In this document: positions 17,340-21,203 of the stretch, piece by piece
Position numbering within the stretch: the first letter of the stretch is position 1
Layout: every line of letters begins with the position of its first letter
From: Patescibacteria group bacterium
GTDB lineage: Bacteria > Patescibacteriota > Minisyncoccia > Ryanbacterales > GWA2-47-10b
Assembly: GCA_038064855.1 (NCBI GenBank)
Contig: JBBTSE010000007.1
Location: 87,699-151,698 of the forward strand
Length of the DNA stretch: 64,000 bases
Direction of reading: 5' to 3'
Notes under the pieces: model-generated
Told to the model about the DNA's origin: nothing
Database searches by the model: none
What the model saw: only the letters and a program-made list of their open reading frames with translations
Made by a program: the position numbers and the translations under genes

Positions 17340-19067
17340 ATGAACGCGTTTTTGAAACGCGTGACCTCTCTCACGATTTTTGTGGGAGGGCTATTGTTTG
17401 TTGTCTTGTCACGCGTTGCTTGGTTGCAAGTGGTCCGTGGCGCAGAGTATCGTGAGCAGGCATCGCGCCAACAATCAGTATCAGAAATTTTTAAGGCGAA
17501 CCGCGGTGAAATCTTGGCGCATGAAAAAAACGCACTCGTGCCGGTGGCAACTACGAAAGAGGGCTGGCTTATGCATATCAATCCAAAGCTTATACAGAAT
17601 CCAGTAGAACTCTATGAGAAACTCTCGCATATCGCGAGTACTACCATGCCTAAAGATGAGTTTGTTGAGCGCGCAAGTAAATCAAACGATCCATATGAGA
17701 TCATCGAACATCGGATATCGCCTTCGGTAAAGCGAGCTATTGAGGCTGCCGAGCTACCAGGTGTCGAATTTTCGCCTGAGCGTTGGCGGTTTTACCCTGC
17801 GGCTGATTTTGCCTCGCAGGTCATAGGTTTTGTGGGTGCTGATGATACGGGGCAGTATGGCCTTGAGCGCTTTTACAATGAAGATTTGTTAGGGCGCGAT
17901 GGTGTTTTTGTAGGCGAAAAGACATCAGGAAAAAAACTTCTCTGGTTTGGTAACGCGAGCTTGACGCCCGTCAAACACGGTGCCTCTATCATTTCCACGC
18001 TCGATACCGGCGTACAGACCAATCTTGAGGGTGTATTGAAAAAAATACGAGAAGAATACCATGCCACATCAGCTGGAGGCATCATCATCAATCCAAAAAC
18101 AGGCCAGATACTAGCGATGGCATCAGTACCATCGTTTGACCCAAATAGATATTCGGATGTAGAAGACATCGCTATTTTTAAAAACCCTCTCGTCGAAGAT
18201 CTTTTTGAAATGGGTTCGGTAGTAAAGCCTCTTACTATTGCCGCCGCCATTGATGCAGGGGTCGTCACAACACAGACCACTTACAATGATACGGGTACGC
18301 GCACGATTGATACGGCGACTATCGCAAACTTCGATGGTAAGGCGCGCGGTGTCGTACCGATACAAGAAATTTTATCGCAGTCACTCAATATCGGTGCCGT
18401 GTTTGTTATGGAGCAACTCGGAAAAGATCGTTTTCGTGAATATATGCATGGTTTCGGGTTAGCAGAAAAAACAGGTATCGATGTGCCGGGCGAGGCGAGT
18501 GGTAAGTTGGCAAATCTCGAGAGCTCACGACTGATTGAATTTGCAACCGCATCATTTGGCCAAGGTATTTCGATGACTGGCGTAGAATTTGTACGGGCTC
18601 TCTCGAGTATTGCCAATGGAGGGTTTTTAGTTGATCCTTACCTTATAGAGGAAGTTCGTGACGAGGACGATACAATAGTCGAGAAAAAGCGTGGCGCACC
18701 ACGCCGTGTCCTGAAAGAAGAAACATCAAAAACAGTAACTCGTATGTTGGTAGAAGTAGTCGATAAAAAACTCGCGAACGGCAAAGGTAGAATCCCCGGG
18801 TATTCGGTGGCTGCAAAAACGGGTACTGCGCAGATCGCATCAAAAAACTCGCGTGGATATTCCGGTGAATTCATGCATACTTTTTTTGGATACGGTCCTG
18901 CCTACGATCCGCAATTTTTAGTATTTTTATATATCGAACGCCCTCAGGGTATTCGGTACGCGTCAGAGTCACTCACACAACCATTTCGCGTTGTCATGAA
19001 GCATCTATTTTCATATTTTGAGATTATTCCTGATAGGCCGCACGAGCTTGAAGCAAAAACACCATGA
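17340..19067 (+). CDS. ftsI: penicillin-binding protein (FtsI/PBP3-type transpeptidase)
   Basis: TM anchor; SVVKPL (SxxK), SQSLN (SxN), KTGTAQ (KTG) motifs; dcw position. Confidence 0.85.
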   Translation: MNAFLKRVTSLTIFVGGLLFVVLSRVAWLQVVRGAEYREQASRQQSVSEIFKANRGEILAHEKNALVPVATTKEGWLMHINPKLIQNPVELYEKLSHIASTTMPKDEFVERASKSNDPYEIIEHRISPSVKRAIEAAELPGVEFSPERWRFYPAADFASQVIGFVGADDTGQYGLERFYNEDLLGRDGVFVGEKTSGKKLLWFGNASLTPVKHGASIISTLDTGVQTNLEGVLKKIREEYHATSAGGIIINPKTGQILAMASVPSFDPNRYSDVEDIAIFKNPLVEDLFEMGSVVKPLTIAAAIDAGVVTTQTTYNDTGTRTIDTATIANFDGKARGVVPIQEILSQSLNIGAVFVMEQLGKDRFREYMHGFGLAEKTGIDVPGEASGKLANLESSRLIEFATASFGQGISMTGVEFVRALSSIANGGFLVDPYLIEEVRDEDDTIVEKKRGAPRRVLKEETSKTVTRMLVEVVDKKLANGKGRIPGYSVAAKTGTAQIASKNSRGYSGEFMHTFFGYGPAYDPQFLVFLYIERPQGIRYASESLTQPFRVVMKHLFSYFEIIPDRPHELEAKTP

Positions 19068-20335
19068 TACAAGTATTGCGTCTCGTCATTTTTTGGATAT
19101 TGCGCGTTCAAGCTACGCTTGTTATTCGTCGCTTCAGGCCGATTGTTATTGGTGTCACGGGTAGTGTTGGCAAAACATCCGCTAAAGAAGCTATCGCGGC
19201 TGTCTTAGCAGAGCATTTCAGAACACGCAAAAGCCCCAAGAGTTACAACAGTGAGCTAGGGCTACCATTGACCATCTTGGGTTTAGAGAGCGCGTGGAAC
19301 TCTCCGTTGGGTTGGTTAAAAAATATTGTGAAAGGTGCGTTGCGCTTCATCTCGCGTAACGAATATCCGGAGCTTTTAGTGCTCGAGATGGGGGTTGATC
19401 GGCCGGGTGATTTTGACAAGATATTGCCATGGCTCAAACCTGATATAGGCGTGGTGACGATGATTGGCGACATGCCAGTACATGTCGAATTTTTTGATGG
19501 ACCTGACGCAGTTGCCGCAGAAAAAGCAAAGCTTTTAGGCGCGCTCGGAGAGCAGGGGACCGCTATCATCAATGCTGATGATCCACGCGTATTCGCTATG
19601 CGCAAGGCAACCAAGGGGAAGGTTATCACCTATGGATTTTCGCGCCATGCAGAAGTACGCGCGTCCGGCGTGCGCATGAGTCTCAAAAAAGGACGGCCCG
19701 ATGGTATGACATTTAAGATTGATTATCAGGGCAAGACGATGCCTATGAGGGTACCGGGAGTAGTCGGTGAGCAAAGTATTTATGCGTTTTTAGCGGCGGC
19801 CGCTGTCGGTCTCGCGCAAGGTCTTAATCTTATCGAGATTTCTGAAGCGCTTCTCAAATACGAGCATCCACCCGGCCGCCTGCGTCTACTTGACGGTCGA
19901 AAAGATTCATTGATTTTAGACGATACCTATAACTCTTCACCACTTGCTGCACTCGCCGCGCTTGAGGCGCTCTCAAAAATGCCAGCCCTGCGCCGCATCG
20001 CCACACTCGGCGACATGCTTGAACTTGGTAAATACACACCGGAGGCACATCGTATGATCGGTAAACGCGCAGCCGAGGTTGCTGATGTAGTTATCGGTGT
20101 TGGTGTACGCTCAAAATTTATGGACACGGGAGACGCGGCCGAATTTCATTGGTTTGCAAAATCGGGAGAAGCGGCTGATTTCCTGGGGCATTTTGTCAAA
20201 GAAGGGGACGCAATTTTAGTAAAAGGATCGCAGGGTGTTCGCATGGAGCGTGTCACTAAAGCACTCTTGCTTCATTCAGAAGATTCCCATCGGGTACTCG
20301 TACGCCAAGAAGACTATTGGCAAAAGCGCCCATAG
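19064..20335 (+). CDS. murF: Mur ligase (UDP-MurNAc-tripeptide--D-Ala-D-Ala ligase-like)
   Basis: GVTGSVGKTS P-loop, Mur ligase middle and C-terminal domains; shortened N-terminal domain; follows ftsI. Confidence 0.7.
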   Translation: MIQVLRLVIFWILRVQATLVIRRFRPIVIGVTGSVGKTSAKEAIAAVLAEHFRTRKSPKSYNSELGLPLTILGLESAWNSPLGWLKNIVKGALRFISRNEYPELLVLEMGVDRPGDFDKILPWLKPDIGVVTMIGDMPVHVEFFDGPDAVAAEKAKLLGALGEQGTAIINADDPRVFAMRKATKGKVITYGFSRHAEVRASGVRMSLKKGRPDGMTFKIDYQGKTMPMRVPGVVGEQSIYAFLAAAAVGLAQGLNLIEISEALLKYEHPPGRLRLLDGRKDSLILDDTYNSSPLAALAALEALSKMPALRRIATLGDMLELGKYTPEAHRMIGKRAAEVADVVIGVGVRSKFMDTGDAAEFHWFAKSGEAADFLGHFVKEGDAILVKGSQGVRMERVTKALLLHSEDSHRVLVRQEDYWQKRP

Positions 20336-20356
20336 GCTGGATTTTTAGTATTTTTT
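20283..20356. repeat. direct repeat copy 1 (murF 3' end plus 20 bp downstream)
   Basis: ~75 bp segment ...cgccaagaagactattggcaaaagcgcccataggctggatttttagtattttt repeated imperfectly at 20733-20808. Confidence 0.6.
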
Positions 20357-20365
20357 TCGAATTTT

Positions 20366-20734
20366 ATGATTACGTATCATTACAGTTTGTGGGAAGATAT
20401 CAAGATGGCGATACAGACGTTTGGGCGTTTTTTTTGGCTTAAAAAACATCGACTGATTTTTTTTATGCCCACTCTGAAACGGTTTCGCGAAATTCGGAGT
20501 TTTCAAAAAAATATTTTTATTGATATCAGCGACGATATCCAGTGTTACTGGGTATCTTCCGGGACTTGGGGATCTTATAAGGCGCCAAATAAAATTTATA
20601 TTTGTCCGTGGGAGATTGAGCAGGCTGGGGGCATAAACAGTGTTATTAATCATGAGATTAAACATCTGCAGCTCTTTGACAAGACAAAACATATGAGCTA
20701 TGAGGAGCGAGAAAAAATCATCGATGAGAGCTGA
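20366..20734 (+). CDS. small HExxH protein (ImmA/IrrE-like putative metallopeptidase)
   Basis: 122-aa ORF in AT-rich islet with NHEIKHLQL HExxH motif; flanked by direct repeats; weak call. Confidence 0.35.
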   Translation: MITYHYSLWEDIKMAIQTFGRFFWLKKHRLIFFMPTLKRFREIRSFQKNIFIDISDDIQCYWVSSGTWGSYKAPNKIYICPWEIEQAGGINSVINHEIKHLQLFDKTKHMSYEEREKIIDES

Positions 20735-20808
20735 AGACTCGCATCGCATGTTGGTGCGCCAAGAAGAGCATTGGCAAAAGCGTCCCTAAGGCTGGATTTT
20801 TGGTATTT
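20733..20808. repeat. direct repeat copy 2 (degenerate duplicate of murF 3' end)
   Basis: ...tgcgccaagaagagcattggcaaaagcgtccctaaggctggatttttggtattttt; roughly 85% identical to copy 1 over its 3' ~55 bp, lower over the 5' part; immediately upstream of tRNA-Glu. Confidence 0.6.
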
Positions 20809-20833
20809 TTGTGGTATAGTGGCAGGCAATTAC

Positions 20834-20905
20834 GGCCCTATCGTCTAACGGCTAGGACAAGCGGTTCTCATCCGCTAAATCGGAGTTCGATTCTCCGTGG
20901 GGCTG
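20834..20905 (+). tRNA. tRNA-Glu (anticodon CUC)
   Basis: Cloverleaf readable by eye: acceptor GGCCCUA/UGGGGCU, 3-bp D-stem GTC..GAC as in tRNA-Glu, anticodon stem AGCGG/CCGCT with loop TTCTCAT (CTC), T-arm CGGAG-TTCGATT-CTCCG; CCA not encoded. Confidence 0.85.
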
Positions 20906-20912
20906 CTGACAA

Positions 20913-21203
20913 ATGTACATTAAAATTTCAGTTCCACAAAACCACAATCGTATGGAGGTCGTGATGGTTGTTGATCGTGCGTCGTTTTTAGAGATAACCC
21001 AGCATCTCGAAGTTGCTTCAGTAGAGCTCTTGGACCTGACTAGAGCCTTTGCCAATTGGGTAGAGCAGGGCGCGTCAAGTACCGAGGTTCACGAATTCCT
21101 TGCAGCCACCAAGCACCTGATCGGCGCCAATGAGGCACTCGGTGCGATCCAAGAAACGCTCCGTGCGCTTCTCGAGGCGAACAGGGCCGAGGGGGTATTT
21201 TAG
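20913..21203 (+). CDS. hypothetical small helical protein
   Basis: 96-aa ORF with good coding appearance, followed by terminator; no recognisable motif. Confidence 0.4.
   Translation: MYIKISVPQNHNRMEVVMVVDRASFLEITQHLEVASVELLDLTRAFANWVEQGASSTEVHEFLAATKHLIGANEALGAIQETLRALLEANRAEGVF

Follow-up and report, generated by a model that had tools for sequence, protein, structure and literature searches.

The 64-kb stretch analysed here (the window, whose positions are used throughout) comes from an uncultured groundwater bacterium of the Patescibacteria, whose source samples are from the Hainich wells (ERZ1292627, ERZ1292643 and ERR3858115). Between murF and the gene for tRNA-Glu(CTC) it carries a small islet with one open reading frame (ORF), ORF122, which encodes a small protein with an HExxH motif. 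The islet is bracketed by two copies of the murF 3' end and the adjoining spacer: copy A completes the functional murF gene, and copy B is a displaced fragment. Based on comparison with related genomes, we consider the islet rather more probably than otherwise the reduced remnant of a small mobile cassette, acquired horizontally from a related Candidatus (Ca.) Ryanbacteria lineage and anchored on murF homology. A preliminary description of this DNA had reported a repeated murF end flanking a low-GC HExxH ORF with tRNA-Glu next to it; all of these elements are present, and its limits (20283-20356 and 20733-20808, about 85% identity) were essentially right.

The two copies are 82% identical over 78 nt (E=1.2e-16, blastn against the 64-kb window), differing at 13 positions plus one 1-nt indel, and within 1.5 kb on either side of them no further repeat exceeds 22 nt. 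GC content is 38% in the segment from 20357 to 20732, lower than in murF (50%) and in the window as a whole (48%). Scans of the islet for terminators, promoters and Rfam RNAs returned the tRNA alone. Because no terminator or promoter was detected between the two genes, ORF122 probably depends on read-through from murF.

Empty sites, which the preliminary description had proposed to look for, were found by a MurF scan with one genome per species. In L003 (annotated as Ca. Ryanbacteria), L004, L005 and L007, whose MurF proteins are 92%, 87%, 80% and 56% identical to that of the window, about 45 nt separate the murF stop from tRNA-Glu(CTC), and ORF122 is missing; the cassette was found at none of 80 other murF loci. 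Aligned to these sites, copy A tracks the native sequence as far as ...agtattttt and diverges thereafter, while copy B begins with gaagac... right where ORF122 stops, and from there the sequence is native on into tggtatagtggcaggcaattac and the tRNA. The region is 100% identical to the window in four independent assemblies from different samples (L112-L115). These identical assemblies, together with the empty sites, establish that the islet is a real insertion and not an assembly artefact. The geometry of a duplicated murF end is also shared by L083, an independent metagenome contig of another species (MurF 85% identical), and the tRNA holds the same relative position in L083 as in the four empty-site genomes.

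The L083 contig is syntenic with the window (rsmH, ftsL, a penicillin-binding protein gene and murF on one side; tRNA-Glu, a small ORF and a P-type ATPase gene on the other) and contains a 1.8-kb insert of three genes between murF and tRNA-Glu. The order, also seen in the same strain from two other samples (L101 and L102), is murF, copy A', a radical S-adenosylmethionine (SAM)/SPASM gene, a short peptide gene, the ORF122 orthologue, copy B' and tRNA-Glu. Thus the earlier suggestion that the islet is a reduced version of something larger is borne out by the 1.8-kb form. The L083 orthologue is 92.6% identical to ORF122 at the amino acid level and 91.8% at the nucleotide level, and the murF-end duplication in L083 is 95% identical over 74 nt. 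Low GC is confined to the ORF122 gene (38% in both the window and L083) and is not a property of the whole cassette, as the L083 radical SAM and precursor genes (within L083:4656-5929) have GC contents of 51% and 61%. The 9 nt that join copy A to ORF122 in the window correspond to the 9 nt immediately 5' of ORF122 in L083; the radical SAM and precursor genes, which lie between copy A' and ORF122 in L083, are missing at the left junction of the window. A tblastn search detected no radical SAM homologue in the 64 kb, and no small ORF with a CxCxC motif occurs there; therefore, of the cassette genes, the last alone remains in the window. The enzyme and precursor that define radical SAM/SPASM clusters for ribosomally synthesized and post-translationally modified peptides (RiPPs) are both found in L083 and both absent from the window.

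The same trio occurs at no fewer than 14 further loci in at least 10 distinct contexts (L001, L084-L088, L091, L093, L096-L098, L103-L107 and L110). Among 20 loci checked, the radical SAM gene lies directly upstream of the ORF122 homologue in 12 (L083 and 11 more), and in 10 of these 12 a Cys-rich CxCxC precursor is encoded between the two; L097 and L098 have no such peptide ORF, their two genes being merely 28 nt apart. Elsewhere the peptides encoded between the two genes have as their C-terminus a conserved ...N-x-SPLCQC(Q/K)CR sequence or a CQCDC-type core. No Pfam or NCBIfam model matches the precursors, and only four precursor clusters, none informatively named, exist in a collection of 5.8 billion proteins. 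The cassette enzyme gives partial NCBIfam matches to SPASM maturases (54-80 bits, against cut-offs of 180-650), the best of which include the PapB, StsB, ScmE/F, ACGX and WgkB maturases. We conclude with moderate confidence from this gene layout that the trio would constitute a RiPP operon, in which modification of the Cys-rich core would fall to the radical SAM/SPASM enzyme and leader removal to the HExxH protein. A literature search for radical SAM RiPPs, ranthipeptides, SPASM proteins or CQCQC peptides in Patescibacteria, the candidate phyla radiation (CPR) or Parcubacteria returned nothing specific.

L083 and the homologues P0114, P0117 and P0118 were compared for an N-terminal PqqD-like peptide-recognition domain. 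The radical SAM enzyme of the cassette (about 365-380 aa) lacks one, and PF05402 is present in more distant homologues of 453-473 aa. Another component of the cassette, possibly the HExxH protein, may thus recognize the leader.

An exhaustive profile search places ORF122 in a family whose 80 representative clusters contain proteins of 110-180 aa; the members that have a name are all labelled 'hypothetical protein'. Across 33 diverse members, residues G69, H96, E97, H100 and E116 do not vary; the motif itself, N-HEIKH-LQL, spans residues 95-103. The combination that characterizes zincins and gluzincins, HExxH with a downstream Glu as third ligand, is therefore present throughout the family. A conserved block, CYWVSSGTWGSY..PN.I.ICPW, has no counterpart in named families. 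Pfam matches of ORF122 are all sub-threshold (Peptidase_M76 E=0.014, DUF2268 E=0.05) and an NCBIfam scan gave nothing, and we accordingly rejected membership of Peptidase_M76. Family members match zincin families alone, and weakly so: DUF6782 (2e-6), DUF2268, M76, SprT-like, YgjP and M48. Searching the PDB with the family profile likewise gave weak matches to the minigluzincins selecase and proabylysin (E=0.24-0.36).

An AlphaFold2 model of ORF122 (predicted local distance difference test score 96.4) contains a small sheet of strands 58-62, 69-72 and 76-79, with HExxH on helix 90-102 and E116 on helix 112-121. Foldseek searches of the PDB and BFVD with this model found no significant neighbour; the best were a phage SprT-like protein (BFVD, E=0.32, template modelling (TM) score 0.43) and, in the PDB, aminopeptidase N and BlaR1 (E>6). 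As judged from motif, family and predicted fold, ORF122 is a putative member of an unnamed zincin-like family of its own rather than an ImmA/IrrE protein, and the HExxH protein is most likely the leader peptidase of the cassette.

Sequence divergence indicates that ORF122 moved horizontally. Between the window and L083, ORF122 is 91.8% identical in DNA, with a proportion of synonymous differences (pS) of 0.30 and of nonsynonymous differences (pN) of 0.032, while murF is 77.9% identical, with pS 0.64 and pN 0.090. When 366-nt windows are slid along about 10.5 kb of flanking syntenic DNA, none of 980 reaches 91.8% (median 77.9%, maximum 87.4%). This excess similarity implies a cassette gene much younger than the split of the two hosts. 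By MurF, RsmH and the ATPase, L003 is closest to the window, followed by L004 and then L083; the cassette is carried by the window and L083 alone and is absent from the closer L003 and L004.

The repeats record where the recombination may have taken place. Copies A and B differ from each other with pS 0.71 and pN 0.10 (synonymous excess, binomial p=5e-4). As these changes are mostly synonymous, the copies stem largely from two functional murF alleles and not from a copy that decayed in place. Each copy has two sub-parts, a1 and a2 or b1 and b2 (Table 1), that differ in their relatedness. High identity to L083 spans ORF122 and b1 and drops to background past GCGCCAAGAAGA, a 12-nt block common to all sequences examined with at most one mismatch, which suggests a recombination joint inside the repeat. 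At the other junction, the TGA stop of ORF122 is built from both sides (T from the ORF, GA from copy B), identically in the window and L083, and ORF122 homologues at other loci end one to several residues later. This shared, junction-built stop implies that the junction arose once, and it looks imprecise.

Table 1. Features of the murF/tRNA-Glu locus and of related cassette loci. Positions are those of the window unless a locus is named.
Feature	Position	Strand	Description
murF	19064..20335	+	UDP-MurNAc-pentapeptide synthetase, 423 aa, intact; Pfam Mur_ligase_M 1.6e-26, Mur_ligase_C 7.7e-15
Repeat copy A	20279..20356	+	Last 57 nt of murF including the stop (EDSHRVLVRQEDYWQKRP and stop) plus 21 nt of spacer; functional murF 3' end
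Sub-part a1	20279-20305		27 nt; 8 differences from L003
Sub-part a2	20306-20356		51/51 match to L003; window-L003 background about 80%
GCTGGATTTTT(T), copy A	20336-20346		Directly after the murF stop
Left junction, ttcgaattt	20357..20365	+	Joins the end of copy A to the start of ORF122
ORF122	20366..20734	+	Small HExxH protein, 122 aa; H96, E97, H100, E116; 38% GC
Repeat copy B	20733..20810	+	Displaced murF 3' fragment, frame kept (EDSHRMLVRQEEHWQKRP and stop), TAA stop at 20787-20789, plus 21 nt of spacer
Sub-part b1	20733-20759		L083-like, 2 differences in 27
GCGCCAAGAAGA block	~20756-20767		12 nt
Sub-part b2	20760-20810		Differs from L083 at background level
GCTGGATTTTT(T), copy B	20791-20801		Directly after the stop of the murF fragment
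Putative extended -10 box, TGgTATAGT	20812..20820	+	Candidate element of the tRNA-Glu promoter, just right of copy B; read from alignment
tRNA-Glu(CTC)	20834..20906	+	Intact, outside the duplication; ARAGORN; Rfam tRNA 53.2 bits
96-aa ORF	20913-21203		Directly 3' of tRNA-Glu; no Pfam family
Radical SAM/SPASM gene, L083	4656-5795		CNSRCTWCY; Radical_SAM 7.9e-25, SPASM E=0.02 (weak); CxxCxxxxxCxxxC tail
Precursor peptide, L083			43 aa, MKSVVTKKFFGNLKGLKIEAVRDPRVVAQNVSPLCQCQCRPPQ, ending SPLCQCQCRPPQ; between the radical SAM gene and the ORF122 orthologue
Direct repeat, L103	2809-2896, 4885-4972		88 nt, 94% identical
Intergenic direct repeat, L001	4056-4128, 7025-7097		73 nt, 95% identical
Insert in copy B', L102	6599-7567		970 bp
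Repeat modules, L090	1080-1360, 3095-3380, 5060-5420		Genome-specific, intergenic
Repeat modules, L110	3507-3580, 4675-4718, 6818-6891, 7258-7331, 7892-7965		One pair brackets the cassette
119-aa ORF, L086	969-1328		Just upstream of the cassette
GCTGGATTTTT, L103	2959-2971, 5461-5476		Intergenic
GCTGGATTTTT, L104	2600-2615, 3009-3024		Intergenic

In the mechanism that we favour, imported DNA would have recombined into the murF/tRNA-Glu spacer, anchored on the murF 3' end. This could have occurred by a Campbell-type single crossover of a circular fragment containing a murF 3' end and the cassette, or by homology-facilitated illegitimate recombination. Either route would duplicate the anchor, with copy A completing murF and copy B left as the displaced 3' fragment. 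Either the distal part of the cassette would be all that the window lineage acquired, or the maturase and precursor genes would have been lost later, leaving ORF122 as an intact orphan with no visible substrate gene in the 64 kb.

Several observations weigh against this reconstruction. To account for the 51/51 identity of a2 to L003, one more event has to be invoked, be it gene conversion or a donor whose allele was L003-like. Copy A and its L083 counterpart have right boundaries that agree to within about 3 nt, a coincidence that a random illegitimate join does not predict. It would favour either a site-specific process or common descent of the entire structure, with a later internal deletion that reached as far as the junction. 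The maturase and precursor could lie elsewhere in the genome, beyond the 64 kb, and neither a circular or excised form nor an empty-site variant from the same population was observed. The assignment of ORF122 as a peptidase draws on its motif, family context and predicted fold, with no significant structural or profile match, and its dN/dS of 0.11 (window versus L083) pools both lineages, so that selection in the window lineage is not separable.

Related geometries are found at other cassette loci. In L103 the trio lies between the two copies of a direct repeat made up of the 3' end of the histidine-kinase gene upstream, and the downstream copy of this 3' end has its own stop. The arrangement of intact gene, cassette and 3' fragment thus recurs at an unrelated target gene. 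An intergenic direct repeat in L001 brackets a 2.97-kb block consisting of a radical SAM gene, a Cys-rich peptide (...CACNNCRCICTGQCQCTS), an ORF122 homologue and an opposite-strand methyltransferase gene. L090 and L110 contain repeat modules of 75-230 nt between successive small genes, each with a hairpin and a possible promoter, and one of the L090 modules directly follows the ORF122 homologue; these modules could be terminator/promoter units or cassette boundaries. In L086 the cassette, with a 119-aa ORF just upstream, is flanked by two paralogous secreted-protein genes that are 73% identical. L084, L106 and L111 have no flanking repeat. With repeats at some loci and none at others, the geometry is recurrent and not universal.

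The 119-aa ORF of L086 was likened by eye to endonucleases of the DUF559/very-short-patch-repair type.

The murF/tRNA-Glu spacer itself has received other DNA. In L102 an extra insert lies inside copy B', exactly at the boundary between tagGCT and GCTGGATTTTT, and encodes two minus-strand ORFs of 173 aa and 94 aa that belong to no Pfam family. The first 60 nt of B' in this sample are 100% identical to A', while L101 and L083 have 4 mismatches in 74 nt. The insert and the homogenization of A' and B' together indicate that the spacer is recombinationally active at the strain level.

A broader proposal, which we advance tentatively and hold to be less probable than the remnant interpretation itself, is that the trio represents both an undescribed Patescibacteria class of RiPP with new minimal zincins and a recombinase-less mobile cassette that spreads between species by copying or taking along the 3' end of the host gene behind which it inserts, murF here and the histidine-kinase gene in L103; the host gene would thereby remain intact, with a 3' pseudo-fragment downstream. 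Should this be so, the window may, equally tentatively, represent a stage of decay in which the peptidase gene alone remains.

The strongest rival explanation is that the islet is the remnant of a site-specific integrative element, with copies A and B as the attL and attR attachment sites of a tyrosine or serine recombinase acting at the murF 3' end, with a replacement murF end on the element that keeps the gene whole, and with the cassette as a non-autonomous passenger mobilized in trans in the manner of a cis-mobilizable element (CIME). We regard this as unlikely, though a genuine contender. The preliminary description had likened the geometry to attL/attR next to a tRNA gene. Part of that proposal stands, since direct repeats and empty sites are present and the repeats behave as recombination junctions, but there is no integrase and the tRNA is not the target: the duplicated DNA is the murF 3' end with 21 nt of spacer, and it ends 23 nt upstream of the single-copy tRNA gene. 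A site-specific process would account for repeat boundaries that coincide to within about 3 nt in two species and for the empty sites in relatives, and the 12-nt conserved block could act as a core; the murF frame is kept in both copies as well. The second, unrelated insertion into the same spacer in L102 would mark a hotspot, and the repeat around the L001 cluster also fits. However, no gene in or beside the cassettes examined (L083, L101, L102 and L103 among them) is annotated as a recombinase or integrase, and the islet of the window is too small to contain one. The full-length element had been expected to bear an integrase, yet the full form in L083 is a three-gene cassette with no recombinase in the surrounding 12 kb. 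A scan of viral contigs found no relative, and the metagenome and genome scans yielded just the three-gene cassette. Moreover, one attachment specificity cannot cover both the murF and the L103 histidine-kinase 3' ends, the junction creates the ORF122 stop in the way of an imprecise join rather than of a defined attachment site, and most other cassette loci lack a flanking repeat. We therefore favour homology-anchored insertion-duplication as more likely than a dedicated or trans-acting integrase.

Alternatively, the murF 3' end could be an old, vertically inherited local duplication from which the cassette was repeatedly lost in L003, L004 and L005 by recombination between A and B, with no transfer. 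Copy B of the window and that of L083 share derived 'cgc ATG TTG gtg' (Met) codons as well as the identical ORF122/B junction, which points to a single origin of that junction, and recombination between direct repeats would restore a clean empty site. This history is nonetheless improbable, as it demands at least three independent precise losses in the closest relatives and leaves the similarity of ORF122 (pS 0.30 against 0.64 for murF, with 91.8% identity above the flanking maximum of 87.4%) without an explanation. The divergence of A and B in their first sub-parts is also mainly synonymous, as between functional alleles.

More improbable still is that ORF122 is an ImmA/IrrE (M78) anti-repressor, to which the preliminary description had likened its motif, or a SprT/WLM protease of a prophage or of an integrative and conjugative element. 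The HExxH motif and small size would suit such a protein, and among the 33 family members one gives a weak match to Peptidase_M78 (E=0.015) and three to SprT-like (best E=9.8e-4), the best BFVD structural neighbour being the phage SprT-like protein named above. The window ORF, by contrast, matches neither Peptidase_M78 (PF06114; nothing at E<=1) nor SprT-like (PF10263) or WLM profiles, and the SprT-like matches within the family are sub-threshold. No Xre or other helix-turn-helix partner and no phage genes lie nearby, its neighbours being murF and tRNA-Glu; the viral-contig scan yielded no relative, and the conserved neighbours of the family are the radical SAM/SPASM enzyme and the Cys-rich peptide. 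A sequencing or assembly duplication, for which only the general risk with metagenome-assembled genomes speaks, is refuted by the 13 differences and the indel between the copies, by the complete identity of L112-L115, and by the same architecture in another species from other samples, that of L083.

The downstream side of the insertion shows features of its own. The TGgTATAGT box to the right of copy B is conserved in every empty-site relative and is a putative element of the tRNA-Glu promoter, although a consensus promoter scan did not detect it. L003 shares the 96-aa ORF beyond the tRNA and L083 has it in an 82-aa form, while L004 and L005 lack it and have other sequence there; this patchy distribution implies that the downstream side of the tRNA is variable too.

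The GCTGGATTTTT(T) sequence follows the stop codon in both copies, and Ryanbacteria relatives have GCTGGATTTTT about 17 nt on the 5' side of a TGnTAnnnT box, where it may act as a promoter element of the -35 type. It also occurs between genes in L103 and L104, with no consistent position relative to the cassette ends. As a general promoter or target motif it was rejected. Exact copies in the window are confined to the two repeats, one in each; with up to one mismatch there are 7 matches in the window versus 2.1 expected.

On its own the islet amounts to a small scar in the genome, but it led to a conserved, unnamed three-gene cassette of ultra-small groundwater bacteria. To our knowledge, little is known about peptide natural products in CPR/Patescibacteria. 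The cassette is of interest for its precursor family with a metallothionein-like CxCxC core, for a radical SAM/SPASM maturase that falls under every curated family threshold, and for an HExxH family of about 125 aa that is confidently modelled yet has no significant structural neighbour. It clearly moves horizontally between species without a recombinase of its own, and in two independent cases an intact host gene stands on one side of it and a duplicated 3' fragment of that gene on the other. If this arrangement reflects a general route of gene gain by homology-anchored insertion-duplication, it would bear on how reduced and presumably competent CPR genomes can take up accessory genes beside essential operons and leave these operons unharmed.

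Among known systems, the full-length relatives are most like radical SAM/SPASM RiPP operons of the sactipeptide or ranthipeptide type, such as those for SCIFF, PapB/freyrasin, ACGX and SynChlorMet. As in these, a SPASM-type enzyme is encoded beside a short precursor that combines a conserved leader with a Cys-rich core at its C-terminus, and a protease-like gene follows. In contrast to the named operons, the cassette enzyme is below the cut-off of every NCBIfam and Pfam model and lacks the N-terminal PqqD-like recognition domain, the precursor (SPLCQCQCR and CQCDC cores) and the HExxH protein are unmatched, and the window itself has neither enzyme nor precursor. ORF122 resembles the minigluzincins (selecase MJ1213 and proabylysin) and other minimal zincins (SprT-like, M48/M56, DUF2268 and DUF6782) in its size of about 110-130 aa, in its HExxH-bearing helix with an invariant Glu 16 residues past the second His, and in a predicted beta-sheet that precedes the active-site helix. 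It differs in that all of its matches are below significance and in that the CYWVSSGTWGSY..PN.I.ICPW segment is peculiar to its family.

As an insertion, the islet shares with CIMEs and integrase-less islets a small, recombinase-free insert, direct repeats in which the target gene's 3' end is present twice while the gene itself stays intact, and empty sites in relatives. Unlike these, it has no known cognate integrase-bearing element, its flanks and those of L103 are murF and a histidine-kinase gene, and the copies in the window are just 82% identical. Campbell-type insertion-duplication and homology-facilitated illegitimate recombination are known from laboratory constructs and from transformation experiments with naturally transformable bacteria. 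With them the islet shares the order of intact gene, foreign DNA and 3' fragment, a joint within homology and one junction that looks imprecise; it differs from the laboratory cases in that the process is reconstructed here from sequence alone, in an uncultured Patescibacteria lineage.

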